DNA of 20,000 bases from an uncultured virus (IMG/VR IMGVR_UViG_3300042898_002828) (IMGVR_UViG_3300042898_002828); one strand, 5' to 3'. Positions 1 through 18,881 are shown, numbered from the stretch's first letter. Numbers and translations: made by a program. Notes: generated by a model from the letters alone, not told the origin.

Positions 1-1
1 A

Positions 2-3702: not shown

Positions 3703-3727
3703 AAAAAAGCACCCGGATAAGGTGCTT
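3700..3727 (-). terminator. intrinsic terminator between convergent genes (possibly bidirectional)
   Basis: Stem AAGCACC (3707-3713) / GGTGCTT (3721-3727) with a 7-nt loop; the A-run from 3701 gives a U-tract on the minus strand. Confidence 0.75.
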
Positions 3728-3751
3728 AATTTGTGTGTTGGTTTAAACTTC

Positions 3752-4072: not shown

Positions 4073-4080
4073 AGTGGATA

Positions 4081-4088
4081 CAAAAATA
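4081..4088 (-). promoter_or_regulatory. Bacteroidota sigma70 -7 element (TATTTTTG)
   Basis: Matches TAnnTTTG, 8 nt before the ATG at 4072. Confidence 0.6.
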
Positions 4089-4117
4089 GTAATTTTTTAA
4101 ATAAAAAATAAAGCCCA

Positions 4118-4783: not shown

Positions 4784-4818
4784 CAGTACAAATTATACAG
4801 TTACACTCATTCATGCCA

Positions 4819-4826
4819 CAAATATA
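4819..4826 (-). promoter_or_regulatory. Bacteroidota sigma70 -7 element (TATATTTG)
   Basis: Canonical TAnnTTTG pointing into the 4783 gene. Confidence 0.6.
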
Positions 4827-4893
4827 AATCTCACACACTTATATTGCAATCAATTAGATAAAAAAGTAATGAGATAGATAGATGTGTGAGGTT

Positions 4894-4957
4894 GACCCCC
4901 CGTATTACAAACGTGGCCCGAAAATAAAAACCGATTTTTTTTGATCCGGGGGGGGTC
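4894..4957. repeat. GACCCCCCG...CGGGGGGGGTC inverted repeat at the composition switch; candidate terminus/packaging signal
   Basis: GACCCCCCG at 4894-4902 and CGGGGGGGGTC at 4947-4957 in AT-rich DNA. The repeat is seen directly; the function is inferred. Confidence 0.45.
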
Positions 4958-5207
4958 TCGTTTTTAACTTTTACTGTGAAATTTTCAGCTTTTGCATTCC
5001 CGGGGGTTGTGCAGGTGCCACGGTCCTGTTGCTGGATGGTGTTTGTTGCGTTACATTCTGCAAAATAATTGCATAGAAGCATTTTAATAAATTATATATG
5101 TTACTCCTTATCTATGTAGGGGCAAAGGTAGATAATTGAACACGGGGCAAATAAACTATATCCTTTACCTTGTCTGTTGTTGTGTTGGATTGTTTTAATT
5201 TAATCCT

Positions 5208-5235
5208 ACTTAACATAATGTAGATTATATAACTT
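5208..5235 (-). other. dif-like XerC/XerD recombination site
   Basis: Minus strand reads AAGTTATATAA-TCTACA-TTATGTTAAGT: 11-6-11 layout, XerD arm 10/11 identical to TTATGTTAAAT, and XerC arm ending in ATAA. Confidence 0.75.
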
Positions 5236-5498
5236 TAACTGTTTGTTGTCGTTTGTTGGATTTATTTTGTCTCCACCGTGTGGCGAAATTAGCTTATGCA
5301 TATGTTCTGGGGTTTTTTGGGGTGGTTTGCATGGTCCCGGGGAGGGGTTAACCTCCCTTTAATCCCCTTTTAAACTTTCTTTTTTGCTCTGATCCTGAAA
5401 ATATTAAATTTCTTTTTCTCTTTTTTTATTGGCTCCTATTGGGTTGTGGGTTTATTTTGCAAAAAATTATTTTTTTTATTTCCTTCTTTAGTCTTGTT

Positions 5499-5517
5499 AT
5501 GTAGAACTATTCTAAAT
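5499..5517. promoter_or_regulatory. palindromic box A (ATGTAGAA-CTA-TTCTAAAT)
   Basis: One mismatch to ATTTAGAA-N3-TTCTAAAT; one of six copies. Confidence 0.6.
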
Positions 5518-5544
5518 TGTTTTGTACATGTGGTTTTATTGGTA

Positions 5545-5743
5545 GTTTGGCACGGTATTAGCAAAGGTTTTTTTATGTCCTTTTTATTGGGTTTTTGATC
5601 TCTTTTTAGTCTTTGTTGGTTCCTTTGTTTTCAGGGGTTCCGGAGGTTATGTCTAGTATTGTTTATTTTAGTGTATTATTTATTAGATTTTTAGAGTTTG
5701 GCACGGTTTGCTTGTTCCCTTTGTTTGCGGGGTTTGGCACGGT
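5545..5743 (+). repeat. three perfect copies of GTTTGGCACGGT (5545-5556, 5696-5707, 5732-5743), sigma54 -24-like
   Basis: Exact 12-mer three times; the first copy continues as TGGCACGGTATTAGCA (GG-N10-GC). Confidence 0.65.
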
Positions 5744-5799
5744 TTTTAATTTTTGGTATTGGGTTTGTAATGTAAGTAGTACAATTAAACGAAAAACAA

Positions 5800-5943
5800 A
5801 TGGAACAGATTATTGAAGCCACCGTAAAAGAAGTTATTAGAATTTCGCATCTTATAGAATCTAATACAGCAACTAAAAAAGATTTATTAAAACTTGCTAT
5901 TCTTAGCGAATTTATTGAAAAAGTAAACAGGCATCTTATTTAA
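5800..5943 (+). CDS. hypothetical protein, 47 aa (MEQIIEATVKEVIRISHLIES...), first gene of the early-type cluster
   Basis: Read manually; A-rich leader ACAATTAAACGAAAAACAA before the ATG. Confidence 0.6.
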   Translation: MEQIIEATVKEVIRISHLIESNTATKKDLLKLAILSEFIEKVNRHLI

Positions 5944-5988
5944 TCAATAAACAGGCAATTTAAACACAATTAAACAAACAATTAAATT

Positions 5989-6213
5989 ATGAAAGTAAAT
6001 TATTTAGCACCTAAACAAGCTTGGACCATCCAAGGCAAACAAATTGTTTTTCAGTCTTATGATACTGTTGTATGTATTATTGAAAATTGGGAACATGGGA
6101 ACCATCCAGTTATTAAGATAACGCCAGGACAGCCCCAAAGTCAAACCACGGCAAAGTATTTAAACATGTTTTTAAAATTACATACACCTTTTAATAATTA
6201 TAAAAACATATGA
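5989..6213 (+). CDS. small phage hypothetical protein (FQSYDT...SQTTAKY family)
   Basis: The FQSY.T and S.TT.K pattern recalls a common small phage early protein; A-rich leader. Confidence 0.75.
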   Translation: MKVNYLAPKQAWTIQGKQIVFQSYDTVVCIIENWEHGNHPVIKITPGQPQSQTTAKYLNMFLKLHTPFNNYKNI

Positions 6214-6482
6214 AAAATTTATCTTTTAACGGCACCTTATATGGGGAACGTTTGACCCTTAATCAAGTATCCAAAGCAACGGCCCGCAAACTTTATGAAG
6301 CGGGCCAGGCAGTCTACATCCAAAGCTCAAATTTTCACCCCTTCGGTGTTTGGAGCCAAGCGCACGAAATAGTAAAGGATGACGAACTACAAACCACGTT
6401 TGAAGCTATATGTAATAACTTTAGATATTACAACTGTAACAACGAGCAAGGCAAATATATAACATTTTACAAAGCAAATTAA
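6210..6482 (+). CDS. hypothetical protein
   Basis: ATGA overlap, co-directional tight packing. Confidence 0.75.
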   Translation: MKNLSFNGTLYGERLTLNQVSKATARKLYEAGQAVYIQSSNFHPFGVWSQAHEIVKDDELQTTFEAICNNFRYYNCNNEQGKYITFYKAN

Positions 6483-6484
6483 AT

Positions 6485-6796
6485 ATGAAAAATCAAATAT
6501 CACAAGTCACCGGATACCCTTTTGTATCTCATGTAGATCAGAACCAAAGGCCTATTTTAAATAATCCTGCCGAATTTATTAAAAAGGTTTATTTATCTCC
6601 TTTTTATACCAATGCAGATAATATTTTCAAGTTTGGATACTATAAAAATATGGGTTATTTATTCGACCTCAAACCAATGTTAAAAAAGTATCTATTTAAA
6701 CAGCACGGACGATGGGAGGAAATTTACGCACCTAATAAAACAGCAGTAAGAAAAGTAATTTACGGTAAAATTAATAAAATAATTGAATTAAAATAA
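6485..6796 (+). CDS. hypothetical protein
   Basis: Tightly packed ORF. Confidence 0.7.
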   Translation: MKNQISQVTGYPFVSHVDQNQRPILNNPAEFIKKVYLSPFYTNADNIFKFGYYKNMGYLFDLKPMLKKYLFKQHGRWEEIYAPNKTAVRKVIYGKINKIIELK

Positions 6797-6800
6797 AATT

Positions 6801-6995
6801 ATGACAAAAAAAGATAGAATAACACAGCTAGAATTAAATGAAAATTGGAAAATTTTTGTAGAATCTCAGGCCCTTAAAATTATGGAGGAATTATTAAAAA
6901 ATTATGAATGTGGTTTTTATACTCCGCAAGAATTTGTGAACCTGAACCTGGAAACATTAAACAACGTAAAAAAACAATTTATAAAAATATCGTAA
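6801..6995 (+). CDS. hypothetical protein
   Basis: Tightly packed ORF. Confidence 0.65.
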   Translation: MTKKDRITQLELNENWKIFVESQALKIMEELLKNYECGFYTPQEFVNLNLETLNNVKKQFIKIS

Positions 6996-7171
6996 TGGAA
7001 ACAATATTAAAACAAATGAAACGAGGCCAGGAGGCCCGGGAACGTGAAACGACCAAACAAAGGTTAATAGGTGAATATGAGCAAAAATTAAATTATGCTT
7101 ATGACTTCACCCCTCACAAAGTAGAATATTATAAAGAACTATTAAACCAAGCTAAAAATTTATTCAAATGA
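6995..7171 (+). CDS. hypothetical protein (start corrected to METILKQ at 6995)
   Basis: TAATG overlap with the upstream stop. Confidence 0.65.
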   Translation: METILKQMKRGQEARERETTKQRLIGEYEQKLNYAYDFTPHKVEYYKELLNQAKNLFK

Positions 7172-7395
7172 GAAAAAAAGAAATAATACAGCATGTTTCA
7201 CAGTATAAAAGTGAAATAAATAGAATCCTTTTAAAACAAGGGAAGGAGTATCAAATAGGTTTTAATTACCATGACTCTATAGACCTTTATTATTTTGGAT
7301 CCAAAGATAAAAATATAATTAGGACCGTATACAATGCAAACAACGGCAAGGACCTATTAAAAGCAATTCAAATAATATATTACTCACAACAATGA
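7168..7395 (+). CDS. hypothetical protein
   Basis: ATGA overlap. Confidence 0.65.
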   Translation: MRKKEIIQHVSQYKSEINRILLKQGKEYQIGFNYHDSIDLYYFGSKDKNIIRTVYNANNGKDLLKAIQIIYYSQQ

Positions 7396-7544
7396 AATAC
7401 CAAATAATTTACAACAGCAACGACATCCAGGCAATTAAAAGCGCTGAGAGACAAAAAACAATGTACGAAAATAAAGGATACAATTTAATAAATACTAAAA
7501 TTTGTCCTAACGGCCTCGTTCAATTAACTTACTTAAAAAATTAA
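7392..7544 (+). CDS. hypothetical protein, 50 aa (MKYQIIYNSNDIQAIKSAERQK...)
   Basis: Read manually; ATGA overlap; fills the gap between tracked ORFs. Confidence 0.6.
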   Translation: MKYQIIYNSNDIQAIKSAERQKTMYENKGYNLINTKICPNGLVQLTYLKN

Positions 7545-7548
7545 AATT

Positions 7549-7797
7549 ATGACATACACTAAAACAGCTTTTAAAAACTCAAAATTAACAATTATTCAAA
7601 AAATATATTTTAGGGAAAACGCCCTTTATTTTTTAGAATGGCAACAATACCATCAACTTATTGAACTTAATAAAATAGTTTTGGCACCTTATTACAAAGG
7701 TATTTTAAGGGAGCAGGCGAAATATTGCCAGGATGTCCAAAATTTTAGAAATTTACACGATGGGAAATGGCCCTATGAATATGAAAACAATATTTAG
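7549..7797 (+). CDS. hypothetical protein
   Basis: Tightly packed ORF; its stop codon lies inside palindromic box B. Confidence 0.65.
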   Translation: MTYTKTAFKNSKLTIIQKIYFRENALYFLEWQQYHQLIELNKIVLAPYYKGILREQAKYCQDVQNFRNLHDGKWPYEYENNI

Positions 7798-7853
7798 AAC
7801 GATTATAAATAACAAAAGTCTTTTTTAATAGACAGTAGTTTAATATAAATTTG
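7792..7853 (+). promoter_or_regulatory. box B (ATTTAGAA-CGA-TTATAAAT, 7792-7810) plus -7 element TAAATTTG (7846-7853)
   Basis: Direct reading; 39 nt between the box and the TTTG. Confidence 0.7.
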
Positions 7854-7877
7854 TATAACAATTAAACACATAAAAAC

Positions 7878-8048
7878 ATGAACAAAAAATTTGAAATTAT
7901 CGTAGAATCTTATTTTAACGGGAATATTTCTTGGGTAAAATCTGAAGTAAAAAAATTATCTAAACAGGCCCGAAAGGAATTATTTATTTATTTCACGGAT
8001 CTATACACAGATAAAAATCAAAATACTTTTTTCTTTAATCTAATTTAA
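7878..8048 (+). CDS. hypothetical protein, 56 aa (MNKKFEIIVESYFNGNISW...)
   Basis: Read manually; directly follows the box B promoter. Confidence 0.65.
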   Translation: MNKKFEIIVESYFNGNISWVKSEVKKLSKQARKELFIYFTDLYTDKNQNTFFFNLI

Positions 8049-8050
8049 TT

Positions 8051-8275
8051 ATGATACCTAATAAAAACCAAATTTTGACAACAAGGCAAAAAAGCACAAA
8101 TATAGCCTTTAGAGATATAGCCGGAGGCTCGTTTCATGTTTATAGTTCACATCCTGAATTACCACACATGCAACGAATATATAAGGCCCTAAAAGATTTA
8201 AAACATACGGGATGTATAAACATATACCTTCTGAAGAGAAACAAGCTAAGATTAATTAAAACAAAGGGATATTAA
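8051..8275 (+). CDS. hypothetical protein
   Basis: Tightly packed ORF. Confidence 0.6.
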   Translation: MIPNKNQILTTRQKSTNIAFRDIAGGSFHVYSSHPELPHMQRIYKALKDLKHTGCINIYLLKRNKLRLIKTKGY

Positions 8276-8301
8276 AAATAACAATTTAATCAAATAGAAT
8301 T

Positions 8302-9015
8302 ATGAAAAATTTAAAACAATTAACGGCAGAACTAAATCTATTCCAGTGTAACGACATACCAGCACCATGGAAACAAAAACAGGTATTAAACGGATCAACG
8401 TTTGACTATTCAGATAAGGTATACAATGAATTTTATTTGCCTTCTGAGCTATTAAAAAAATACGAACATGGTTTGTTCTGGGAATGTAAAAAACAGTATA
8501 AAAATATGGCTCCTGATGAAGTAGAACTTTATTATATTGAGCATTCAAGAATATTATTTTTAAGTCCCAAGGGAAACCTATTAAGACTGACAAAAAACAA
8601 ACAAAATAAATATGATTTCCATCTTGATTGGTCCCACTATAGAGAAGTACAAAATATTTCACACTATAAACGCGAGGCAGCGATTAAAGAAAGTGGAATT
8701 GTGGAACCTAATTATATTGGAGTATTCACGGATAAAAAAATACTTGATTGGTGTAACTATTGTGATGCAATGGCCGAAATAAACAAACAACTTGTTTTGG
8801 ACTCAGCAGACAAAAATACTGAAATAGAAAAAGAGATCCAAAGTTTTATTGACTCGGTAAAGTGCCAAGTTCAAAGATGGGACAACAAAACAGATGTAAC
8901 AACCGATTTTTTTCACGTTCGATTTACACATGACAAAGCAAGCCAATATTTAAGTAAAGCAGTAACCTTCACCGGGACATTAAAAGACATAACAAATTTA
9001 ACCAATAAAAAATAA
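8302..9015 (+). CDS. hypothetical protein, 237 aa
   Basis: Long ORF co-directional with its neighbours; no motif recognised. Confidence 0.8.
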   Translation: MKNLKQLTAELNLFQCNDIPAPWKQKQVLNGSTFDYSDKVYNEFYLPSELLKKYEHGLFWECKKQYKNMAPDEVELYYIEHSRILFLSPKGNLLRLTKNKQNKYDFHLDWSHYREVQNISHYKREAAIKESGIVEPNYIGVFTDKKILDWCNYCDAMAEINKQLVLDSADKNTEIEKEIQSFIDSVKCQVQRWDNKTDVTTDFFHVRFTHDKASQYLSKAVTFTGTLKDITNLTNKK

Positions 9016-9215
9016 TGAAAACAAAAATATCAATTTACGATTTTACCTTCACTCCTTCAGGATACGGACATTATAAAATAGTCTATGAAAGTCCCGCAAC
9101 TGGTAAACAATGGAGCACAACTACAAACGATATGCCGTTAATAGATGCAACAAAAAACAGCGAATCTCCGAAAGTTAAAGACCTTAACACATTAAAAGAA
9201 ATTTGTAAAAAATAA
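9015..9215 (+). CDS. small conserved Bacteroidota phage/mobile-element protein (SGYGHYK...TGKQW...NDMPLIDATKN)
   Basis: Resembles a family recalled from Bacteroides mobile elements; function unknown. Confidence 0.75.
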   Translation: MKTKISIYDFTFTPSGYGHYKIVYESPATGKQWSTTTNDMPLIDATKNSESPKVKDLNTLKEICKK

Positions 9216-9219
9216 AATT

Positions 9220-9423
9220 ATGAAACCAAAATACAAACCAACCAAAAAAAGAATCTACGAGAATAACCACTATGTTATAACTCTAGTAATTAATACCGGA
9301 GCTTATAAAGTGTCTCCCAAAGATAGTTTTAACGATAGTTATTTTAATACTTTAGATGAAGCAGCGAAGTACATCGGGACAACTTCCGACAATATAATGA
9401 ATGCAGATAGTTTTACATCATGA
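9220..9423 (+). CDS. hypothetical protein
   Basis: Tightly packed ORF. Confidence 0.6.
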   Translation: MKPKYKPTKKRIYENNHYVITLVINTGAYKVSPKDSFNDSYFNTLDEAAKYIGTTSDNIMNADSFTS

Positions 9424-9569
9424 TAACAAGAAACGAAATTTTAGATCAGTTTGGGACCTTCTTTAAAGAATCAGACCAAACAACCGAGGATGCAACCATT
9501 AACATGCTAGACCTCGAGAGAATGAACGACAAGCAATTAACCCGTATTTATAACGCCTTTTTTAATTAA
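9420..9569 (+). CDS. hypothetical protein, 49 aa (MITRNEILDQFGTFFKES...)
   Basis: Read manually; ATGA overlap. Confidence 0.55.
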   Translation: MITRNEILDQFGTFFKESDQTTEDATINMLDLERMNDKQLTRIYNAFFN

Positions 9570-9573
9570 AACC

Positions 9574-9897
9574 ATGAAACAAACATATAATATTCAAGAC
9601 AGAGAAGCCGGAAACATAATTGTATCGGGCTTGACCCTTAAAAATGCACAAAACTTTTTAAGAGGTTATGAAGAAACAGACCGAGCAAACCACGAATTTA
9701 CACCGAACTTTTACGAAATCGGGGAAGATGAAGAAATTGAAAAATCATATTTTGCCAAGTCCAAAAAAGAATATTACACTTTTCGAGCAACAGACAACGA
9801 AGATGCAAGGCACTGGATTATTAACCACCTTGACACGTCTCAAGAATGGAATTATGGATTAGTTGTATATCCCTTACAAGAATCTTTTAATGTCTAA
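9574..9897 (+). CDS. hypothetical protein
   Basis: Tightly packed ORF; N-terminal half similar to 10057..10212. Confidence 0.7.
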   Translation: MKQTYNIQDREAGNIIVSGLTLKNAQNFLRGYEETDRANHEFTPNFYEIGEDEEIEKSYFAKSKKEYYTFRATDNEDARHWIINHLDTSQEWNYGLVVYPLQESFNV

Positions 9898-10060
9898 GGC
9901 CATGCTAACAAAGATAGAAATTAAGTTAATAGTTGAATCGTTGGAGATTCACGCGGGAGAATGTTTGGAAGCCTTAAAACACGCCCGAAAATTAAAGATA
10001 AGCGATAAGGCTATAGTATCAAAATACAAAAAGATTTACAAATTAATTGAAAAGCTATGA
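9890..10060 (+). CDS. hypothetical protein (start corrected to MSKAML at 9890)
   Basis: In-frame ATG overlapping the end of the upstream gene. Confidence 0.55.
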   Translation: MSKAMLTKIEIKLIVESLEIHAGECLEALKHARKLKISDKAIVSKYKKIYKLIEKL

Positions 10061-10212
10061 CAACAGAATTATTTAACATAATCAACACAACAACCGGAAT
10101 AATATTGTGCTCAGGACTCACCCAAGACGAAGCAGAAGAAATGAAGCAAGAATATATTAACCTGGACATCTTTAATTCAAACAAAGAAATTTATAAAATT
10201 ATAAAATCATGA
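10057..10212 (+). CDS. hypothetical protein, 51 aa (MTTELFNIINTTTGIILCSGLTQDEA...)
   Basis: Read manually; ATGA overlaps at both ends. Confidence 0.6.
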   Translation: MTTELFNIINTTTGIILCSGLTQDEAEEMKQEYINLDIFNSNKEIYKIIKS

Positions 10213-10391
10213 AAATTAGAAACACGCAAAGCGGGGGAGTAATGCTTCAGAGGAAACGTCAAAGTGAGTCATCATCCTTGTTTAAGGTTATAGATCCAAA
10301 TGGGAACATTAGATATAAGATTGGCGATGAATTTTGGATTAAGCATTCAACAATCGGTCCAGGACTATTAAACGAACCAATTAAAGAATAA
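10209..10391 (+). CDS. hypothetical protein
   Basis: ATGA overlap. Confidence 0.55.
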   Translation: MKIRNTQSGGVMLQRKRQSESSSLFKVIDPNGNIRYKIGDEFWIKHSTIGPGLLNEPIKE

Positions 10392-10395
10392 AACC

Positions 10396-10827
10396 ATGAC
10401 AGACGCAGAACAACTTAAAGAAGATAGGATGATTTTTGAATTAAAATGCCTCCTAGATATTAAAGATTTTAAAATATTTCAAGACGAAGCAGAAAAAATA
10501 TGGATTTTAGATAAGTTGAAAAAACATAATTTTAATGTCACTAAAACTGCTATTGAAATTCGCATCCAGCGGAGCCATCTTTACAATAAAATCATCAAAT
10601 ACAAAATTCCAATAGATAGGAAACTAAAATACAGCTATTCAAATGGTAAATACATGGTAATTTTCAATCCTAATGGGGATAGGTTTAATTTTATTATCAA
10701 AAATGAACCCGAACTAACGGAAACTATAAAAAGTGGCTTACAATTCGTTTATATACGAAAATCAAATTTAGCTTACATGGCCAAAAAAATATTCACCCGG
10801 ATAGAAAATTTAACAAACGTCAATTAA
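10396..10827 (+). CDS. Fis-type (HTH_8) DNA-binding protein resembling the C-terminus of NtrC/NtrX-like sigma54 activators
   Basis: FQDEAEKIWILDKLKKHNFNVTKTAIEIRIQRSHLYNKIIKYKI fits the Fis/NtrC HTH pattern; no AAA+ or receiver domain. Confidence 0.75.
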   Translation: MTDAEQLKEDRMIFELKCLLDIKDFKIFQDEAEKIWILDKLKKHNFNVTKTAIEIRIQRSHLYNKIIKYKIPIDRKLKYSYSNGKYMVIFNPNGDRFNFIIKNEPELTETIKSGLQFVYIRKSNLAYMAKKIFTRIENLTNVN

Positions 10828-10842
10828 TTAATAAATGCATCT

Positions 10843-10903
10843 ATTTAGAATGATTTTAAATAACTAAACCACTTGATTATTAAAATCAGAACAACGTATT
10901 TTG
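10843..10903 (+). promoter_or_regulatory. box C (ATTTAGAA-TGA-TTTTAAAT, 10843-10861) plus -7-like CGTATTTTG ending at 10903
   Basis: Direct reading; 38 nt between the box and the TTTG. Confidence 0.7.
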
Positions 10904-10919
10904 AACCAACAATTAAATT

Positions 10920-11189
10920 ATGAAAAAGACATTAGAACTAACATTATGCGAAAGTGAAGGAGTAAAGATTGAAGTATCTTGCGATGTGCTACGAATTGAA
11001 ACTGACAATCCTGCTACACATCCCGATGACCCGAATCAAGCAACCATTACAGAGTATTGGTGTAAGACCATTAATAAATTAAAGATAAACGGTTTTGAGT
11101 TGGGAATTTACAACCATAAAACCTTAAAAGAAATTGAACGATTAGTGGAGGACCAGTTAGGATCTAACCCTGATTTATTTGAAGGATAG
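10920..11189 (+). CDS. hypothetical protein
   Basis: Follows the box C promoter, with an ACAATTAAATT leader. Confidence 0.75.
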   Translation: MKKTLELTLCESEGVKIEVSCDVLRIETDNPATHPDDPNQATITEYWCKTINKLKINGFELGIYNHKTLKEIERLVEDQLGSNPDLFEG

Positions 11190-11335
11190 TATATAGCGTA
11201 CAATAATATGAGAAGTTGGGGGCTGTCGTGAGCAGTTGACAAAATGAGTCCTACCCCACGGAGAAGATGCCGAAAATGACGGTTAAACATCGATTCCCCA
11301 ATTTCTTATATTTATTGTTATAAAATCGTTTTAAT

Positions 11336-11472
11336 GTTTTATAACGGCTGACGCTATACGAAGGCAGGGGTTAAGATGCACTCCCTTTCAGCCTACCACA
11401 AATGATAAATAGATGCACACCGCTTGTATTAGCAGTAAAGCCCCTGCTTTTGTATAGCGTATGTTATAGGGC
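11336..11472 (+). mobile_element. attC-like integron cassette recombination site
   Basis: ...TATAAC (ending 11345), an 18/20 inverted repeat (11351-11370 / 11441-11460), then GTTATAGGGC (11463-11472). Confidence 0.65.
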
Positions 11473-11489
11473 GTTTTAATTTAATTACA

Positions 11490-11750
11490 ATGGAAAAGAC
11501 TTACAGATTAGAATTTAATGAAAAACAACAAAACTTTCATTTAGACAACTTCACTCACGAAGAAGGAACGCACGGATGGTTTACGATTTTTGAGCATTGC
11601 ACAGATATTGAGTTTAAAGTTTACGAGGCTTTTGTTAATCGTATCCCAAATAAAAAACTTACAAAAGAATACTTGCTAAAATGTGCAGTAGAAGTAAAAT
11701 TATTTACTAATAATTTGTTGGAATACGGATTGGTTGTCGGTCGTTCTTAA
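11490..11750 (+). CDS. hypothetical protein carried as a gene-cassette-like unit
   Basis: Flanked by GTTATAGGGC (11463-11472) and its reverse complement GCCCTATAAC (11753-11762). Confidence 0.75.
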   Translation: MEKTYRLEFNEKQQNFHLDNFTHEEGTHGWFTIFEHCTDIEFKVYEAFVNRIPNKKLTKEYLLKCAVEVKLFTNNLLEYGLVVGRS

Positions 11751-11806
11751 ATGCCCTATAACTAATCGTTCAGTGTTATAAAACTAAATATTAAACTTTT
11801 AAAAAT

Positions 11807-11941
11807 ATGCAAGTTACAATTAATTACAATTTGAAATGGCAGCTAAAAACAGCCCCGAATTATCAGTTTACAGACAATGGAATCTGCATCAATACATTAA
11901 GAGGCAAGATAGTTAAAAAAGTAATATTGCAGCGTTACTAA
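11807..11941 (+). CDS. short or possibly truncated hypothetical protein (MQVTINYNLKWQLKTAPNYQF...)
   Basis: Read manually; 44 aa. Confidence 0.45.
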   Translation: MQVTINYNLKWQLKTAPNYQFTDNGICINTLRGKIVKKVILQRY

Positions 11942-12012
11942 CTTACACACCAATAACACCGATACTTGGGTTAGATGATTACAATAGCACCCAAAAATTA
12001 GTAAATGCACCT

Positions 12013-12073
12013 ATTTAGAACGTTTCTAAATTACTTAAACCAACAAATAATTAAAACAATATCTCTTAATTTG
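12013..12073 (+). promoter_or_regulatory. box D (perfect ATTTAGAA-CGT-TTCTAAAT, 12013-12031) plus -7-like TTAATTTG ending at 12073
   Basis: Direct reading; 38 nt between the box and the TTTG. Confidence 0.7.
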
Positions 12074-12077
12074 AATA

Positions 12078-12224
12078 ATGAAATTTAAAGCACTTAGGAA
12101 GTTCAGTAGGCAAGAGGTTGTGGGATACCTAAGTAAAATTAACAAAGTAAGAATTTATACCATTGATGGGGTTGATTATACAATAACTGAATTTAAAAAA
12201 CATTTTAATAATTTTGAAATATGA
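12078..12224 (+). CDS. hypothetical protein, 48 aa (MKFKALRKFSRQEVVG...)
   Basis: Read manually; near-leaderless start after the box D promoter. Confidence 0.55.
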   Translation: MKFKALRKFSRQEVVGYLSKINKVRIYTIDGVDYTITEFKKHFNNFEI

Positions 12225-12394
12225 CAAAGAAAGGAAAATATTTTTTTAGAGATATATCGCCAGGTACATACAATAAACACGAAGTTATTCCGGCCACTAG
12301 GGTTTGTTTTTGTTGCGGTAAATACGTGGAACCATTCAATATATTTTGTGATCCTTGTTATGCAAAAAATAACCAACGAAGAACTAATAATTAA
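12221..12394 (+). CDS. small Cys-rich (zinc-finger-like) protein, 57 aa (...VCFCCGKYVEPFNIFCDPCY...)
   Basis: Read manually; CxxC...CxxC pattern; ATGA overlap. Confidence 0.55.
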   Translation: MTKKGKYFFRDISPGTYNKHEVIPATRVCFCCGKYVEPFNIFCDPCYAKNNQRRTNN

Positions 12395-12398
12395 ATAA

Positions 12399-12650
12399 AT
12401 GAACATACAAAACATTTTTAAAAGTAAACCAAAATTTGAAACATGTACCTTGGCAATAGCCGACTACTTTAAAAGAAATGGTAGTTTAAGCCAGTTGGAG
12501 TGTTGCCAGTTATTCCTTAATTGGAATCTTCACAAAGTAGTGGACCGTCTAAAAAAACACCACAATATGAATTTTGAGAAAACAAAAAAGCTTGTTAAAA
12601 CCAGATACGGTAAAACAACTGAAATTGTAACCTATCACTTAATAAGATGA
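12399..12650 (+). CDS. winged helix-turn-helix protein (HTH_39-like)
   Basis: GSLSQLEC...L..VVDRLKK...TRYGK...TYHL pattern. Confidence 0.55.
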   Translation: MNIQNIFKSKPKFETCTLAIADYFKRNGSLSQLECCQLFLNWNLHKVVDRLKKHHNMNFEKTKKLVKTRYGKTTEIVTYHLIR

Positions 12651-12838
12651 TTGAAGATTATCCGTTATTTGCTGACTTTTGGAAGCTAACCAATAAAATT
12701 GGGAGAAAAGAGTTGATGGCAAAACGATGGCAGGTATTGCCACAATGGAAGAAGATTGAAGTTTTTAACAAAGCATTAAACGATAAAAATAAAAAGGGAG
12801 CAGAATTTTACCTAAACATAGGAAGATGGAAGAATTAG
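12647..12838 (+). CDS. hypothetical protein resembling a replication-initiator C-terminal fragment (F.DFWK...A..RW..L)
   Basis: ATGA overlap; weak resemblance to the C-terminus of 13149..13748. Confidence 0.55.
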   Translation: MIEDYPLFADFWKLTNKIGRKELMAKRWQVLPQWKKIEVFNKALNDKNKKGAEFYLNIGRWKN

Positions 12839-13005
12839 AAAACATAAAATCAGAAATAGAAAGCATTAAAGATGAAATTGAAAATCTGTCCGACCAAATT
12901 AGAAGAGAACGTGACGGTTCTGTTGATAATCAACGAGATTTAATGAAAAAATCTATGGAGTTAAATTTAGCACGTAGAAAACTTGAATTTAAGCTAATGA
13001 GGTAA
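12826..13005 (+). CDS. coiled-coil hypothetical protein, 59 aa (MEELENIKSEIESIKDEIENLSDQI...)
   Basis: Read manually; heptad pattern. Confidence 0.6.
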   Translation: MEELENIKSEIESIKDEIENLSDQIRRERDGSVDNQRDLMKKSMELNLARRKLEFKLMR

Positions 13006-13028
13006 TTTGTTTTTGTAATAAGTTAAAC

Positions 13029-13036
13029 TATATTTG
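13029..13036 (+). promoter_or_regulatory. Bacteroidota -7 element TATATTTG for the replication operon
   Basis: Canonical TAnnTTTG; no palindromic box upstream. Confidence 0.65.
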
Positions 13037-13050
13037 TACCGCTCATCACG

Positions 13051-13152
13051 ATGAAAATCTTTAAAAATAAATCCCCATTCCTTACATTGCACTTTGCATA
13101 TTCTATGCACGTGATGAGCCTTTGTATTGGATGGGGTTATTTTTATAAATGA
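13051..13152 (+). CDS. putative 33-aa leader peptide (MKIFKNKSPFLTLHFAYSMHVMSLCIGWGYFYK) coupled to the initiator gene
   Basis: Its TGA (13150-13152) overlaps the initiator ATG (13149-13151), and it spans a structured leader. Confidence 0.45.
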   Translation: MKIFKNKSPFLTLHFAYSMHVMSLCIGWGYFYK

Positions 13153-13748
13153 GAGATTCCTGTATTTTTTACCGTAGTTTTTATGAATCAATTAACGAAC
13201 TACCAGACATAAACAAATTAGAAATTTACAACGCTATTTTTAGCTATTCTTTGAACTTTATTGAGCTTGAATTAACAGGTTTAAGTAAATCTATTTTTAC
13301 ATTAATAAAACCACAACTTGATGCTAATATCAAGCGTTTTAATAACGGTAATATACCAAAAGATAAGCAAACAAAAAGCAAAACAGAAGCAAAACAGAAG
13401 CAAAAAGAAAGCAAACGTGAAGCTAATAACAATGTAAATAACAATAACAATGTAAATGATAATAAGAATAAAGAAGAAAAGATAAATTTTGATATTTTTT
13501 ATAATTTATATGATAAAAAAGTAGATGGCAAGGATGCTAAATTAAAATGGGATAGATTAGATTTACAAACTCAACAACTAATATTATCGGTAGTTCCTAA
13601 ATACATAAAATCCACCCCTGATAAGCAATTTAGAAAATCGCCTTTGGTTTACTTAAATAAAAAGGCATGGGAGGATGAAATTATTATAGAAAAAGAGTTT
13701 AACAAACCAGTACAAACATACAAAGAACCAATATCAAAATTATTATGA
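13149..13748 (+). CDS. phage replication initiator (DUF6291-like N-terminus, low-complexity linker, FDIFYNLY...W C-terminal domain)
   Basis: DSCIFYRSFYESI...IKPQLDAN N-terminus, internal iterons, and position upstream of DnaB. Confidence 0.75.
   Translation: MRDSCIFYRSFYESINELPDINKLEIYNAIFSYSLNFIELELTGLSKSIFTLIKPQLDANIKRFNNGNIPKDKQTKSKTEAKQKQKESKREANNNVNNNNNVNDNKNKEEKINFDIFYNLYDKKVDGKDAKLKWDRLDLQTQQLILSVVPKYIKSTPDKQFRKSPLVYLNKKAWEDEIIIEKEFNKPVQTYKEPISKLL
13365..13480 (+). repeat. 11-bp iterons (AAGCAAAnnnn-type, six units, 13365-13430) plus an AT-rich tract: putative origin of replication
   Basis: aagcaaacaaa / aagcaaaacag / aagcaaaacag / aagcaaaaaga / aagcaaacgtg / aagctaataac, followed by AATAACAATGTAAAT repeats. 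Confidence 0.65.
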
Positions 13749-13969
13749 GAAAAATAAGATTAGAATACTCAAGAGAGCAAGGATGTTTTCACTTTGAAAA
13801 TGTTAATAAGGACAATAAAAATACATTTAGTTATTTTACAATTAAAAATGAGGTTGATAGTGATATAGCTTCTGAATTTGTAAAAATGTATGATAGTAAA
13901 TATCCTAAAAGAAATATATCAATCCAGGCAATGAAAGATGAATTTAATAACTTTATCAATGGAAGGTAA
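13745..13969 (+). CDS. hypothetical protein, distant paralog of 11490..11750
   Basis: Shares RLE....Q..FH..N and FTI with 11490..11750. Confidence 0.7.
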   Translation: MRKIRLEYSREQGCFHFENVNKDNKNTFSYFTIKNEVDSDIASEFVKMYDSKYPKRNISIQAMKDEFNNFINGR

Positions 13970-15377
13970 ATTACCACCACAGGCAATAGATTTAGAAGAA
14001 ATAGTAATAGGGGCTGCAATGCTTGAAAAAACGGCATTTGGTAAAGTATCAACTATTTTAGATAAAAAAGATTTTTATAAGGAGCAACATAGTATAGTTT
14101 GGGATATTATGAGTGAACTATATAATGAAAATTTACCAATAGATATTATGTCTGTTATTGAAAAGTTAAGGTCAAAAGGTAAATTAGATTTAATAGGTGG
14201 TGCGCATTTTATAAGCCAACTAACAATAAGGGTTGCTTCTGCTGCAAATATTGAATATCATTCTACAATTATAAAACAGTTATCACTACAAAGAAATATT
14301 ATTGAACTTTCAACGGATTATTTAAATAAAGCATGGGAAAATGGAATAGACCCTTTTGAATTTAGTAAAGAATTTGCATGGAAACTTGAAAATATTACAT
14401 CTTCACTTACTCCCGATATGAGAGATATAGGTAAAGTTGCTAAATTAACTTACAGTATGATGCGTGAAGCAAGTTTAAATGAAAGTGATATAATTGGGTA
14501 TCCAAGTTCAATAAGTGCCTTAAATGATAAATTATTAGGCTATTCTGCACCCGATTTTACAATAGTTGCAGCAGGAACCGGAGAAGGTAAATCTACGTTT
14601 ATGTTAAATGAAGTTAAGGCACTTGCAAAACAAGGCATTCCATGTGCTGTATTTAGTTTAGAAATGAACGATTATCAACTATTATGGAAAATGTTTAGTT
14701 CTGATTTAGATATAGATGTTAAAAGTATAAGAAAGGGTAAAATGGATGAAGGTAGATGGGATAGTTTAAGTGATAATGTTAAAGAATATGCAAAGATGCC
14801 AGTTTACTTTTATGATTCAGGGGGATTAACGATAGAAAAGTTTTGTGGTATTGTTAAAGAAGCTGTAAGGAAAAACGGTGTAAAAATGGTTTTTATAGAT
14901 TATATACAGTTGCTTATGGTTCAAAATGCTAAAGACTTTGGTAATAGAGAGGGTCAGGTTAATTTTATATCTAAAAGGATTAAACGATTAGCAAGGGAAT
15001 TAAGCATACCTATAATGGCTTTAAGTCAATTATCAAGATTAGAAAAAGGAACTAAAAGAAAATATAAACTTTCGGATTTAAGAGAATCTGGAGCATTAGA
15101 ACAAGATTCAGATAACGTAATATTTTTATATAATCCATCTTATCATGGAGTTGAAGAAATGGAATTTTATGATAAAAACGAAAACGGAAATTATGAGAAA
15201 CAAACTATTGCATTTGATCATGAAGATTGTTTAATTTTGATAGAAAAATGCAGATTAGGAGAAACAGGAATAGTAAGATGTAAATTTAAAGGTAAATTTT
15301 CACGACATGAAGATTTACCAAATAGCCAACGAATACAAAAGACAGAAGATTTTAGTTTTAACGATAGACCTTTTTAA
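13959..15377 (+). CDS. dnaB: replicative DNA helicase DnaB
   Basis: LPPQAIDLEE N-terminus, Walker A AGTGEGKST, FSLEM, VFIDYIQL, ALSQLSR and SDLRESGALEQDSD; start set at MEGKLPP (13959). Confidence 0.95.
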   Translation: MEGKLPPQAIDLEEIVIGAAMLEKTAFGKVSTILDKKDFYKEQHSIVWDIMSELYNENLPIDIMSVIEKLRSKGKLDLIGGAHFISQLTIRVASAANIEYHSTIIKQLSLQRNIIELSTDYLNKAWENGIDPFEFSKEFAWKLENITSSLTPDMRDIGKVAKLTYSMMREASLNESDIIGYPSSISALNDKLLGYSAPDFTIVAAGTGEGKSTFMLNEVKALAKQGIPCAVFSLEMNDYQLLWKMFSSDLDIDVKSIRKGKMDEGRWDSLSDNVKEYAKMPVYFYDSGGLTIEKFCGIVKEAVRKNGVKMVFIDYIQLLMVQNAKDFGNREGQVNFISKRIKRLARELSIPIMALSQLSRLEKGTKRKYKLSDLRESGALEQDSDNVIFLYNPSYHGVEEMEFYDKNENGNYEKQTIAFDHEDCLILIEKCRLGETGIVRCKFKGKFSRHEDLPNSQRIQKTEDFSFNDRPF

Positions 15378-15380
15378 AAT

Positions 15381-15653
15381 ATGATAAAGTGGATTAACAA
15401 ACCTTACGGGAATTGTCCCGTACAAGCGGAAGGATATTTTTTGAATCATTATTTCTATTTTCGGGCAAAATGGGAATTTGTTGAGATAGAGTTTTACAAA
15501 ACACAGGAAGACTTCTGGAGCAATGAACCTATAAAAGAATATCTTTTAATGAATACAGAAGAGTACAAAGCAGGATGGTTAAGCCACCGAAAATGTTATT
15601 TTTTGATAGTAAAAGGATTGATTAAATTTTCTTATTATATATTATTCAAATGA
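15381..15653 (+). CDS. hypothetical phage protein (GNCPVQAEG...FYFRA)
   Basis: Tightly packed ORF. Confidence 0.7.
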   Translation: MIKWINKPYGNCPVQAEGYFLNHYFYFRAKWEFVEIEFYKTQEDFWSNEPIKEYLLMNTEEYKAGWLSHRKCYFLIVKGLIKFSYYILFK

Positions 15654-15823
15654 GTTGGAAATCTAAATATGAAGAAATATCAAAAAAGCGAATAGCTGAA
15701 ATTGATAAATTAGAAAAAGAATTAGATGTATTTAATAAAAAGTACAGAGAGCTGGAGAATAAATTAAGACAAGCCCTCGAACTTATCCAAAAATTAGAAC
15801 CTAATGATAAAAATAAATATTAA
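15650..15823 (+). CDS. coiled-coil hypothetical protein, 57 aa (MSWKSKYEEISKKRIAEIDK...)
   Basis: Read manually; ATGA overlap. Confidence 0.55.
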   Translation: MSWKSKYEEISKKRIAEIDKLEKELDVFNKKYRELENKLRQALELIQKLEPNDKNKY

Positions 15824-16136
15824 GCCTTTATCGGTTAATCAAGTTTGGCAGGGCAAACGATTTAAGACACCTATTTATAAAAGCTATGAAACAAGTTGTT
15901 TATGGTTATTACCTACAATAGAAATACCAGCAGCACCTTATGAGTTTCATTATGAATTTGGATTTAGTTCTAAATTATCTGATTTGCTTAATCCTGAAAA
16001 ACCAATTACGGATATAATTTGCAAACGATATGGAATAGATGACCGATATATTAATAGGATGGTATTAGAAAAGGTTATGGTTAAAAAAGGTGAGGAATAT
16101 ATTAAATTTGAGATAACTCATGCAAAACCACGTTAA
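15804..16136 (+). CDS. RusA-like Holliday junction resolvase
   Basis: KPLSVN start, SDLLNPEKPITD (D-x2-N-x2-K-x3-D) and GIDDRYI. Confidence 0.75.
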   Translation: MIKINIKPLSVNQVWQGKRFKTPIYKSYETSCLWLLPTIEIPAAPYEFHYEFGFSSKLSDLLNPEKPITDIICKRYGIDDRYINRMVLEKVMVKKGEEYIKFEITHAKPR

Positions 16137-16395
16137 GGTTTACTTAAACCATTTCGGATATGGTGAAGATGATTTTATAAAATGTGAAAGACCCGAATGC
16201 AATAAAAGGGCAGTAGATATTATGCACCTTATACCACGTTCTAAGTTTGGTAAAAAAAGAAAAGATGAACAAGACCACATTACTAACCTTTTTGCAGGGT
16301 GTAGGTTATGTCATACAGCATTTGACGATGGGAAAAAATGGACATTAGAAGAAATGCAAAAAATACATTTATTTAATTTATCAAGATTAATATGA
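16120..16395 (+). CDS. HNH-like endonuclease with Zn-binding cysteines
   Basis: CERPEC...AVDIMHL...NLFAGCRLCH. Confidence 0.65.
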   Translation: MQNHVKVYLNHFGYGEDDFIKCERPECNKRAVDIMHLIPRSKFGKKRKDEQDHITNLFAGCRLCHTAFDDGKKWTLEEMQKIHLFNLSRLI

Positions 16396-17165
16396 AAAAA
16401 TACATATCATTTAGCGGTGGAGTTGAAAGTTCAACAATGGCAATACTTTATGGCAAAGGTGCTAAATTGATATGGGTAGATACCGGAGCAGAACATAAAG
16501 AACTTTATGACAGATTAGATATGTTTGAAAAATACATATTAGAACTACATAAAGGAGATTGTGAATTAATCCGTTTAAAAGGTTCTTATTCTACTAAAGG
16601 TGTAAAAGTAGATAGTTTGATTGATGCGATAAGAATAGGACAATTTATGCCATCAGGCCAAAAAAGATTTTGCACATCAGCATTTAAAATTAAACCTATT
16701 GATAATTATTTAAAGTCACTTGGCGAAGTAGAACTTATGATAGGTTTTAATTTGGATGAAGAAGGTAGGACAGGAAACCTTGAAAAAATATCAAGTATTA
16801 ATTACACATATCCTTTAATTAATGATGGCTACACAAGAAAAGACTGTGAAGCTATTTTAGAATTTCACGGAATGCACCCATCTTTTCCTGTTTATATGAA
16901 TAGAGGAGGCTGTAAGATGTGTTTTTATAAGTCACAAAAAGAATACAAAGCAATGTATTATTTAGACCGTGATACTTTTAATGAAATTAAAGAATTAGAA
17001 AATAATATTCAAGATAAAAGAACTAAGCGTTTTTCAATTATGGAATCAGGCAAATCAATGAATCAACTAGAACAAGAGTGCAAAGAAGAAATACCATTTG
17101 ATTTTACCGAAATTTATAAAGATAGGGAGAGCAATCGTTCTTGTGGAGCATTTTGTAGAAGATAG
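16392..17165 (+). CDS. PAPS-reductase-family (PP-loop, Cys-rich) protein
   Basis: SFSGGVES, VDTGAEH, RFCTSAFKIKPI, YPL, GGCKMCFY and C-terminal SCGAFC. Confidence 0.8.
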   Translation: MKKYISFSGGVESSTMAILYGKGAKLIWVDTGAEHKELYDRLDMFEKYILELHKGDCELIRLKGSYSTKGVKVDSLIDAIRIGQFMPSGQKRFCTSAFKIKPIDNYLKSLGEVELMIGFNLDEEGRTGNLEKISSINYTYPLINDGYTRKDCEAILEFHGMHPSFPVYMNRGGCKMCFYKSQKEYKAMYYLDRDTFNEIKELENNIQDKRTKRFSIMESGKSMNQLEQECKEEIPFDFTEIYKDRESNRSCGAFCRR

Positions 17166-17166
17166 T

Positions 17167-17322
17167 ATGACATACAAAGGATTTAAAATAGAACTAAACG
17201 AGTATTACAATTGGCGATACCCAAATACAAAATATTTATATTATAGTATTAATGATTGTGATAGACCTGTATTATGGGCTTCAACAATAGATGAATGCAA
17301 GAAAGAAATAGACCTTATTTAG
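17167..17322 (+). CDS. hypothetical protein (start corrected to MTYKGF at 17167)
   Basis: In-frame ATG right after the upstream stop; its own stop lies inside box E. Confidence 0.6.
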   Translation: MTYKGFKIELNEYYNWRYPNTKYLYYSINDCDRPVLWASTIDECKKEIDLI

Positions 17323-17377
17323 ATTAATTTTAAATTAGAAAACCCGATAAAACGTATTAGTTGAAATATTACTTTTG
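17317..17377 (+). promoter_or_regulatory. box E (ATTTAGAT-TAA-TTTTAAAT, 17317-17335) plus -7 element TACTTTTG (17370-17377)
   Basis: Direct reading; 38 nt between the box and the TTTG; precedes the methyltransferase gene. Confidence 0.7.
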
Positions 17378-17382
17378 AAAAT

Positions 17383-18807
17383 ATGAAAATAAATGTATTG
17401 AGCCTGTTTGATGGGATGTCTTGCGGACAACAAGCACTTGAAAGAACTGGTATTAAAGTAGATAATTATTTTGCATCAGAGATTGATAAGTATGCAATCC
17501 AAGTTACTATGGCAAATTACCCCAATACAATTCAATTAGGGAGCGTTGTAGGAGTGGATGGGTATAGTTTACCTAAAATTGATTTATTAATAGGTGGAAG
17601 TCCTTGCCAATCGTTTTCATTTGCAGGTAAAAGAAAAGGAATGTCTACCAAATGCGAAACTGAGATATTAACCTTAGAGCATTACCTTGAATTAAAAGCA
17701 GAAGGCTACGAATTTGAAGGGCAGTCTTATTTGTTTTGGGAATTTATGCGGTTACTATATGAATGCAAACCTAAATACTTTTTACTTGAGAATGTTGAGA
17801 TGGGCGAAAAGTGGGAAAAAGTATTAAGTAAGGCAATTGGAGTTAATGGTATCCATATAAACTCAGCTTTATTCTCTGCTCAGAATCGTAAGCGTATTTA
17901 TTGGACAAATATAGGATTAGAACCGGCAGGATTATTTGGTTATCCAATGTCTATTATAAGAAAACCAAAAGACAAAAAAATATTATTAAAAGATATTTTG
18001 GAAAGTGAGGTTGATGAAAAGTATTTTTTGAGTGAGAAAGCAATTGATCGATTTGCAAGGTCAGAAGGTGGTGAAAAGTGTCTTGATAATGATAATAAAT
18101 CTATGTGTTTAATTAGTGGATATTATAAACAAGGCAGAGATAATCAATTAATAGTCCACAACACAATGCCACGTTCATCAACATCGGGCAAAGGTGGTAC
18201 AGGCCCATTAAGTAGAGCTGATGGAAAAACTTATTGCTTGGATACCGGTAATACAAATGCGGTGGAGGTAGTTAGTACAATTAAACATAAATACAATGGG
18301 GATGTTTTAGAAAATACAAGTGGAAAAGTTGGTACAATTACTCAACATATGAGCAGAAGCGGTATGACTAATGGATTTAAAGTTGTTGTTCCTAATACTA
18401 ATGAGGTGGAGATAGTGGCTCAAAGAGGCAGAGGCGAAAAAGGCAATATTGAGCAACAATTAGAAGTTAGGAAAGATGGAAAAACAAATTGCTTAACAAG
18501 TGTGCAAAAAGATAATTTAATTAGACAACTTAACCCATCTCTTGAAAGTGGTGGCAAACAACCTTACCAACAAAATAGAGTGTATGATATAGATGGAATT
18601 AGTCCTGCATTACAAGCTCAATTACCATATGGAGCTAATATTATAAACACTTCACGCATCCGCAGACTAACGCCAACAGAATGCGAAAGATTGCAAACAG
18701 TACCTGATAACTACACTAATCACGTTAGCGATTCACAACGATATAAAATGCTTGGAAATGGGTGGACAGTTGATGTTATTGCTCACATATTATCTTATTT
18801 AGAATGA
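17383..18807 (+). CDS. DNA (cytosine-5)-methyltransferase with a long modular target-recognition region
   Basis: VLSLFDG (motif I), GGSPCQ (IV), LLENV (VI), QNRKR (VIII), RRLTPTECERLQ (IX) and LGNGW (X). Confidence 0.93.
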   Translation: MKINVLSLFDGMSCGQQALERTGIKVDNYFASEIDKYAIQVTMANYPNTIQLGSVVGVDGYSLPKIDLLIGGSPCQSFSFAGKRKGMSTKCETEILTLEHYLELKAEGYEFEGQSYLFWEFMRLLYECKPKYFLLENVEMGEKWEKVLSKAIGVNGIHINSALFSAQNRKRIYWTNIGLEPAGLFGYPMSIIRKPKDKKILLKDILESEVDEKYFLSEKAIDRFARSEGGEKCLDNDNKSMCLISGYYKQGRDNQLIVHNTMPRSSTSGKGGTGPLSRADGKTYCLDTGNTNAVEVVSTIKHKYNGDVLENTSGKVGTITQHMSRSGMTNGFKVVVPNTNEVEIVAQRGRGEKGNIEQQLEVRKDGKTNCLTSVQKDNLIRQLNPSLESGGKQPYQQNRVYDIDGISPALQAQLPYGANIINTSRIRRLTPTECERLQTVPDNYTNHVSDSQRYKMLGNGWTVDVIAHILSYLE

Positions 18808-18857
18808 TTCCAAATTAGCAAACCCGATAAATATATGAATTGAATAAACGTATTTTG
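18797..18857 (+). promoter_or_regulatory. box F (ATTTAGAA-TGA-TTCCAAAT, 18797-18815) plus -7-like CGTATTTTG ending at 18857
   Basis: Direct reading; 38 nt between the box and the TTTG; the MTase stop codon is the box centre. Confidence 0.7.
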
Positions 18858-18881
18858 CCCTACAATTAAACAATTAAAAAA

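Follow-up and report, generated by a model that had tools for sequence, protein, structure and literature searches.

Fur-box palindromes at fixed spacing upstream of predicted promoters in an uncultured phage

We analysed a 20,000-nucleotide stretch of DNA from an uncultured virus (IMG/VR IMGVR_UViG_3300042898_002828; "the window" below means this whole stretch), in which a 19-bp palindrome recurs six times (boxes A to F). The palindromes are very probably binding sites of the host regulator Fur, and it is probable, judging from the sequence, that iron-loaded host Fur binds them and activates early and middle phage promoters. Five boxes stand at a nearly constant distance upstream of a predicted promoter, and because this spacing is the layout found at iron-rich respiratory genes of hosts, the phage probably switches genes on with iron. 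Under this proposal, metal-loaded host Fur would bind the boxes upstream of the core promoters, most of which have no -33 element, and bring the host RNA polymerase to them. Transcription of small open reading frames (ORFs), a replication-gene unit and a DNA methyltransferase would rise in iron-replete, respiring cells, and the same early and middle modules would be lowered in iron-starved cells. The repeated box-plus-promoter cassettes would also serve as recombination joints for module swaps, through which incoming genes would inherit Fur control.

Six boxes and their promoters

The boxes lie at 5499..5517 (A), 7792..7810 (B), 10843..10861 (C), 12013..12031 (D), 17317..17335 (E) and 18797..18815 (F), with 1, 1, 1, 0, 2 and 1 mismatches, respectively, over the 16 arm positions of the palindrome; no strand is assigned to them. 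All six had been listed in an initial annotation made from the sequence alone, and all were recovered. Matches with at most 3 mismatches numbered 7 in the window against 1.21 ± 1.06 expected, and 0 of 200 shuffles reached 7. A matrix scan, as the annotation had suggested, was run with a weight matrix trained on pattern-selected boxes of Bacteroidota genomes, the phylum being as far as the phage's own host could be placed. It scored the six boxes at 19-28 bits, within the host range of 12-32, and the next best site in the window at 2.2. A seventh candidate at 19803 (3 mismatches) lay inside a gene, scored 0.8 bits and was rejected; given this gap, we count six boxes. None lies in 1-5498, so the cluster of glycosylation genes is box-free, as had been noted.

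Box A is located in a long non-coding region ahead of the first small rightward ORFs, and box C begins 16 nt past an ORF for a helix-turn-helix (HTH_8) protein. Boxes B, E and F contain the stop codons of upstream ORFs: the TAG (7795-7797) of ORF 7549-7797, the TAG (17320-17322) of ORF 17098-17322 and the TGA (18805-18807) of the methyltransferase. The stop-codon overlap had been reported correctly; the conclusion drawn from it, that the sites are kept within coding DNA, gains little, as only 6-11 nt of these boxes are coding. The flanks said to be common to C and D, and to E and F, are real.

Past boxes B to F, the TTTG of a -7 element begins after 39, 38, 38, 38 and 38 nt, which bears out the fixed spacing first described, and the TA of the same element begins after 35, 35, 35, 34 and 35 nt. 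The chance of such an element at +34/35 of a random position is 0.0037; treating B, C/D and E/F as three independent lineages, with the first fixed, the chance of the shared spacing is 1.4e-5. The Bacteroidota -7 box sits at -12 to -5 (PMC9723704; consensus also in PMC7366714). Relative to the five predicted rightward promoters of the host polymerase, boxes B to F would thus extend from about -66 to -48, with the centre near -57.

All five elements are on the plus strand. That of cassette B (7846..7853, +35) is canonical TAnnTTTG, with a predicted start at about 7858 and small ORFs from 7878; that of cassette E (17370..17377, +34) is also canonical, with transcription predicted to begin 1 nt ahead of the ATG of the methyltransferase. 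The elements of cassettes C (10897..10903), D (12067..12073) and F (18851..18858) are short forms at +35, with predicted starts at about 10909 (gene at 10920), at the ATG at 12078, and at about 18863 (gene at 18882). Since the predicted starts of D and E fall at an ATG (12067-12078 and 17370-17383), the mRNAs of ORF 12078 and of the DNA methyltransferase are probably leaderless. The unit behind cassette D leads towards an HTH_39 ORF and the replication genes.

The elements at C, D and F are indeed one base short, as the initial annotation stated, but they are not necessarily weak, as it supposed, because a promoter class one base shorter, SM5 (TAnnTTGY), is documented in Flavobacterium psychrophilum (PMC9723704). 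The element at F fits SM5 fully; those at C and D retain the TA and TTG without the final pyrimidine. A TTG in the -33 zone was found in the box C cassette only, and most of the boxed promoters have no -33 element. Promoters without a box also exist: a canonical element at 13029..13036 (plus strand), with a TTTG/TTG-rich stretch upstream, precedes the replication module (DUF6291 protein, DnaB). For box A the paired element, of the form TAnTTTG, is at 5543 (+25), one helical turn nearer than in B to F; at this distance the box touches the -33 zone and the sign of control is ambiguous. The ORF at 19448, which had been labelled a putative single-stranded DNA-binding protein and placed under box control, has phrog_6706 as its sole match, with no function assigned there, and control of this unit by a box is not established because a further short -7-like element lies at 19383.

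Identity of the box and its layouts in host genomes

The link to Fur proposed in the initial annotation proved well founded. The identical 19-mer is the predicted Fur box of Riemerella anatipestifer, with electrophoretic mobility shift assays (EMSA) on promoter fragments (PMC5609570; its abstract prints the E. coli consensus instead). In strain CH-1, deleting the box or fur derepresses rhuH (PMC11967795); in the fur mutant rhuB rises more than 20-fold and its iron response is lost, and Fur binding requires Mn (PMC10986502). Derepression with loss of the iron response applies to rhuB and two other receptor genes (PMC10986502; PMC7976709). Metal-dependent binding by Fur is documented for Riemerella promoters only.

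A scan of genome contigs for exact copies returned at least 120 stretches, 80 of them with names. Among the matches listed, 56 of the 80 named loci were Bacteroidota by name; the other 24, one of them an Ignavibacteriaceae record, were left out of the counts, and loci L207-L246, which had no listed names, entered the phasing test only. An iron, haem, Fe-S or respiratory gene neighboured the box at 33 of the 56 Bacteroidota loci listed (95 flanking ORFs scanned), or at 37 of 56 if generic SusC/TonB genes and nrdD are included, and the motif thus marks iron and haem genes in host genomes. The neighbours named among these matches were hemA (10), suf (5), iscA (2), TonB/SusC receptors (5), cytochromes c (5), nqrA (2), superoxide dismutase (2), nuoB, nrfH, feoA and fur. 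Six positions had been left free by the search pattern (the two bases flanking either end of the palindrome and the outer two of its spacer), so the test of motif identity is not only circular. At these positions the six phage boxes followed the Bacteroidota preferences more closely than any of the random draws (0/200,000), or at 1e-5 when the four independent boxes A, B, C and F are taken.

Some exact boxes had other neighbours. Two Bacteroidales genomes (L177, L201) carry one about 300 nt upstream of dnaA, and L127 carries one 181 nt upstream of nrdD. A divergent hemA/araC pair is conserved in Flavobacteriales, with the box 15-47 nt before the araC start (L139, L143, L150, L156, L166, L175, L179, L191).

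The distance from exact host boxes to a canonical -7 element clustered at 23-28, 33-36, 43-47 and 55-57 nt. With orthologues included, these distances were helix-phased (n = 40, Rayleigh R = 0.6, p ~ 5e-7), as were those in virus contigs (n = 43, R = 0.68), and the +35 of the phage coincides with the mean phase of the host distances. The box followed by TANNTTTG gave 44 matches in 401 Bacteroidota genomes against 7 in controls, and the neighbouring genes were examined for 30 of the 44. Among these 30, the phage's own box-to-TTTG distance of 38-39 nt belonged to nuoB promoters, 49-50 nt to actA, nuoA and one cytochrome, and 59-60 nt to sdhC and one cytochrome. Boxes B to F share a helical face with the host boxes at nuoB (+34/35), with sdhC, actA and cytochromes (+44-46) and with sdhC and ccoN (+55-57).

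Gene classes were sorted by hand. Phased upstream boxes were found at 10 of 13 respiratory or iron-using loci not chosen for geometry, and at 0 of 16 suf, iscA, feo, TonB and superoxide dismutase loci; eight of these 16 have a canonical element, which lies upstream of or under the box in seven and at +27 in one. At hemA loci the box lies past the promoter of the divergent araC in 4 of 8 cases. The upstream regions of sdhC in the Chryseobacterium family, to which Riemerella belongs, carry a box with at most 3 mismatches in 11 of 12 cases (control 0/12), and the best sites at all 12 lie at +45/46 or +57. Host boxes thus occur in two layouts. At suf, iscA and siderophore receptor genes they overlap the promoter; at nuoB, sdhC and cytochrome genes they lie upstream of it in helical phase, at +35, +45 or +56. 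Phage boxes B to F have the nuoB layout.

A similar division has been shown experimentally in Caulobacter. There, Fur represses uptake genes where its site overlaps the promoter, and where the site lies upstream of the -35 element, at sdh, nuo and acnA, it activates directly, by about 2-fold (PMC2724300). The suggestion in the initial annotation that the boxes serve an activator fits both the host respiratory layout and this precedent. From geometry and analogy, we infer that a Bacteroidota Fur can activate in the same way. Wild-type Riemerella under iron restriction lowers sdh, cytochrome and nrf genes and raises suf and TonB genes, and a fall of cytochrome genes under iron limitation also appears in PMC5429918 (two cytochrome rows matched in its supplement).

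Several results weigh against activation by iron-loaded Fur. In the Riemerella YM RNA-seq data, iron restriction lowers expression of sdhC and cytochrome genes in the wild type and the fur mutant alike, and no fur effect on them is listed with iron, yet the family has the sdhC box. Uptake and suf genes also remained iron-responsive in the YM fur mutant, in conflict with CH-1; the difference may lie in a threshold, in a second regulator or in the dataset itself. Phylum-wide, a box was found at only 3 of 29 sdhC loci (29 of 56 matches examined), 9 of 10 hemA loci have no canonical element at the phased distances (1/10 fits), and a box upstream of fur was absent in 5 of 5 further hosts, leaving L148 as the only autoregulation site. 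The host phasing counts include orthologues, and 15 of the 30 loci examined represent one actA promoter. In the phage itself, three of the five -7 elements (C, D, F) are non-canonical, the host is placed no further than Bacteroidota, with a best named DnaB match of only 41%, and Fur binding, start sites and activation are all predictions. Activation by a Bacteroidota Fur was not found in the literature searched, most subscription papers lying outside the search.

Cassettes in related and unrelated viruses

The mosaic relative G002 (54.9 kb, 90% complete) served as a proxy for the rest of the genome. Its shared blocks are 79-99% identical to the window, and outside them it encodes portal, GroEL/GroES, NinG and two Mom proteins. 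No tyrosine integrase (PF00589) was found in G002 or in the more distant phage G007 (0/2). The G002 capsid protein had 85 GenBank matches, 84 of them to Flavobacterium, Cellulophaga or Maribacter phages at 25-54%, and the named matches of the window's DnaB were all Bacteroidota, at about 37-41% (best, a Taibaiella metagenome-assembled genome); the phage's host is therefore taken to be a member of Bacteroidota.

Four cassette boxes are present in G002, all at 23-38 kb and at early/middle gene-module boundaries, with none in the other ~38 kb. The mosaic breakpoints between the window and G002, at 10861, 17351 and 18791, coincide with boxes C, E and F. Between cassettes E and F the window carries a C5 DNA methyltransferase (17383..18807, plus strand; PF00145, E = 2.5e-43) that is absent from G002, where E and F are replaced by one chimeric cassette with an E-type box and an F-type promoter; box C of G002 carries an E-type promoter. 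Box A is identical in G002 at 19/19 nt, and its flanks match at only 12/20 and 14/25. In G007, box D and the next 60 nt, promoter included, are almost unchanged, and the upstream DNA is different. The simplest reading of these joints would be recombination within the common cassette sequence. An ORF of 73 aa that is intact in G002 (32279-32500) has its stop codon inside box D; the window copy (11807-12015) is broken. Two Mom-family DNA-modification genes (G002 30235-31745, L370) lie downstream of the box-C cassette, and in the window the C5 methyltransferase stands behind box E. Mom is an iron-binding protein.

The array is not family-wide. None of 24 capsid relatives (17 IMG/VR and 7 GenBank records, including elemoE, phi38:1, Calle_1, phi13:2, phi19:3 and Panino) carries a second box at ≤2 mismatches, so no cultured model was found among them. 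We also sampled 50 virus contigs, each chosen for having a box. At least three boxes with ≤2 mismatches were found in 17 of these 50 box-chosen contigs and in 1 of 50 controls, and boxes beyond the seeds numbered 71 against 15. Contigs without a blastn match to the window repeated the +34/35 layout (G468, 4/4 boxes; G470, 3/3; G473, 4/5; G469, 2/4) or showed other layouts, +55/56 in G441 (7/7) and +6 in G434 (3/3); G445, G451, G464 and G475 had mixed layouts or mostly no paired canonical element. A broader reading, tentative though by no means far-fetched, is that many unrelated Bacteroidota phages have come under host Fur control independently. In this phage, G468, G470 and G441 the sites would be activating ones, in helical phase with early and middle promoters; in G434 they would be repressing ones that overlap the promoters of other operons. 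Iron-loaded Fur would then serve as a gate or timer of the lytic programme, it would directly activate respiratory operons in the host, and in this phage the cassette would act as a joint.

The remainder of the window (G+C 31%) comprises a glycosyl/methyltransferase cluster (1-3700), a long non-coding stretch (~4800-5800) and a rightward part with many small ORFs, the DUF6291 replication protein, DnaB, a PAPS-reductase-like protein and the C5 methyltransferase. The cluster region (window 1-4783; G002 17697-22478) is not alike in the two phages, the G002 version having an asparagine-synthase-like gene; the minus-strand gene 4118-4783 is the part common to both. The non-coding stretch, between divergent gene blocks, is strongly G/T-skewed over 4800-5790, has a 10-nt motif three times (near 5546, 5698 and 5733) and is a possible origin or packaging region. 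The PAPS-reductase-family protein (16392-17165), with cysteine clusters, lies just upstream of box E; it had no PDB match at E ≤ 0.1 and is possibly an Fe-S enzyme for DNA modification. An imperfect inverted repeat of ~135 nt (11336-11472) with AAC/GTT ends precedes ORF 11490, and a matching short core (11751-11765) follows the gene, an arrangement that we take to resemble an integron-type attC site with its gene cassette; its fold z-score is only -1.6 and it has no Rfam match. The small ORFs 11490-11750 and 13745-13969 are weak paralogues (27% over 55 aa, pairwise E 7e-5). Scans of the window were at chance level for sigma-70 promoters (87 against 83.6 expected) and terminators (10 against 7.1), and the Rfam scan gave 0 matches.

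Alternative readings and comparison with known systems

Host Fur might bind the boxes without activating, so that the sites titrate Fur after genome replication and derepress host uptake, or repress or roadblock read-through from upstream. We consider this unlikely, although it has the most in its favour among the alternatives. Boxes with ≤1 mismatch are dense in the phage: the 20-kb window has five (250 per Mb), whereas five host genomes totalling 24.3 Mb have 15 (0.6 per Mb). Fur has been demonstrated in Riemerella as a repressor only, and box A at +25 is placed like the boxes of fur in L148 (+28) and of a SusC-like gene (+27). A Fur sponge would, however, need neither a fixed 34-35 nt spacing nor helical phase, and in G002 all the boxes stand at module boundaries. 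The +6 layout of G434 indicates that a repressing layout was available to phages, yet it is unused here.

Slightly less credible is that Fur was co-opted as an abundant, usually active activator of weak promoters, with iron sensing incidental and no phage decision point. No role in iron metabolism is evident for the genes downstream of the boxes, Caulobacter Fur activation is modest (PMC2724300), and the lack of an integrase in G002 and G007 leaves no obvious lysis/lysogeny switch to control. Against it, stronger canonical promoters evolve easily, as the one at 13029 illustrates, and near-consensus sites have been retained amid diverging flanks and recur in unrelated virus contigs.

A shade less likely again is another metal or redox regulator, a PerR-like paralogue or a DtxR-family protein, that would read the palindrome with peroxide or manganese as the signal. 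The core of the palindrome resembles the PerR 7-1-7 box, and PerR controls hemA and fur in Bacillus; in addition, genes of the YM fur mutant still responded to iron, and some hosts carry two or three PF01475 genes. On the other side, the CH-1 genetics and EMSA indicate Fur, and no catalase, AhpC or Dps was named among the 95 neighbouring ORFs. At the residue that distinguishes a Fur-type from a PerR-type regulatory site, which is Asp in B. subtilis PerR, the main Fur protein has Glu in five hosts and in L148, aligned with that of C. jejuni Fur. Two box-bearing hosts (G023, G482) have a single PF01475 gene each, the search for paralogues having covered the PF01475 family.

The initial annotation had also offered two phage proteins as binders, a Fis-type HTH_8 protein (10396..10827, plus strand; a weak match to PF02954, 23.8 bits with a cut-off of 22) and an HTH_39 winged-helix protein (12399..12650, plus strand; atlas score 0.93 to PF14090 clusters). 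Neither candidate was retained, and a phage-encoded regulator is very improbable: box C does follow the 10396 gene closely and box D accompanies the 12399 gene in G007, but the same motif and flank preferences mark host iron genes, searches with each protein singly, which may overlook distant homologues, detected neither of the two in any of 16 further contigs that have 3-7 boxes, G007 has box D without a 10396 homologue, and a phage-encoded Fur (PF01475) was found neither in the phage nor in those contigs (0 of 3 close records; 0 of 18 in a wider search).

If host Fur does activate these promoters, an apparently lytic phage would read host iron status at its own core promoters, which would provide a molecular handle on iron limitation of viral production in Bacteroidota, major degraders of organic matter. 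Bacteroidota Fur would activate transcription directly and from set positions (centres near -57, -67 and -78), and swapped-in genes such as DNA-modification enzymes would be iron-controlled on arrival through the cassette joint.

Our literature search, with most subscription papers outside its scope, found no Fur sites on core phage promoters and no description of an activating layout in Bacteroidota; host-factor sites on phage promoters are already known. T-even phages use repeated early-promoter cassettes (PeSL elements) as shuffling joints that bound exchangeable modules; here the repeated unit also includes a host regulator site. A Fur box on stx1 of lambdoid prophages and a DtxR site on corynephage tox likewise place a host iron regulator on phage DNA, but as one repressing site on a prophage cargo gene, whereas this phage has six sites, at core phage promoters, and no integrase was found in G002 or G007. 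Phages that read CtrA (Alphaproteobacteria phages), LexA (GIL01/CTX) or Spo0A (phi29) also carry multiple promoter-linked sites for a host global regulator and couple phage genes to host state (PMC9437464, in whose available text "Fur" and "iron" are absent); in this phage the regulator would be Fur and the cue metal status, with activation of early and middle modules predicted. The R. anatipestifer Fur regulon (PMC5609570, PMC7976709, PMC10986502, PMC11967795) is alike in the 19-bp palindrome, the phylum and the -7/-33 promoter type; it comprises host iron and haem uptake genes under repression only, whereas the phage has the box at its own promoters in the upstream helix-phased layout. Caulobacter crescentus Fur on sdhCDAB, nuoA-N and acnA shows the same split, upstream at iron-using and overlapping at uptake genes, with other motif letters, in another phylum and on host genes only (PMC2724300, which also cites Neisseria norB, nuoA and pan1 as Fur-activated); for a Bacteroidota Fur, activation is a prediction.

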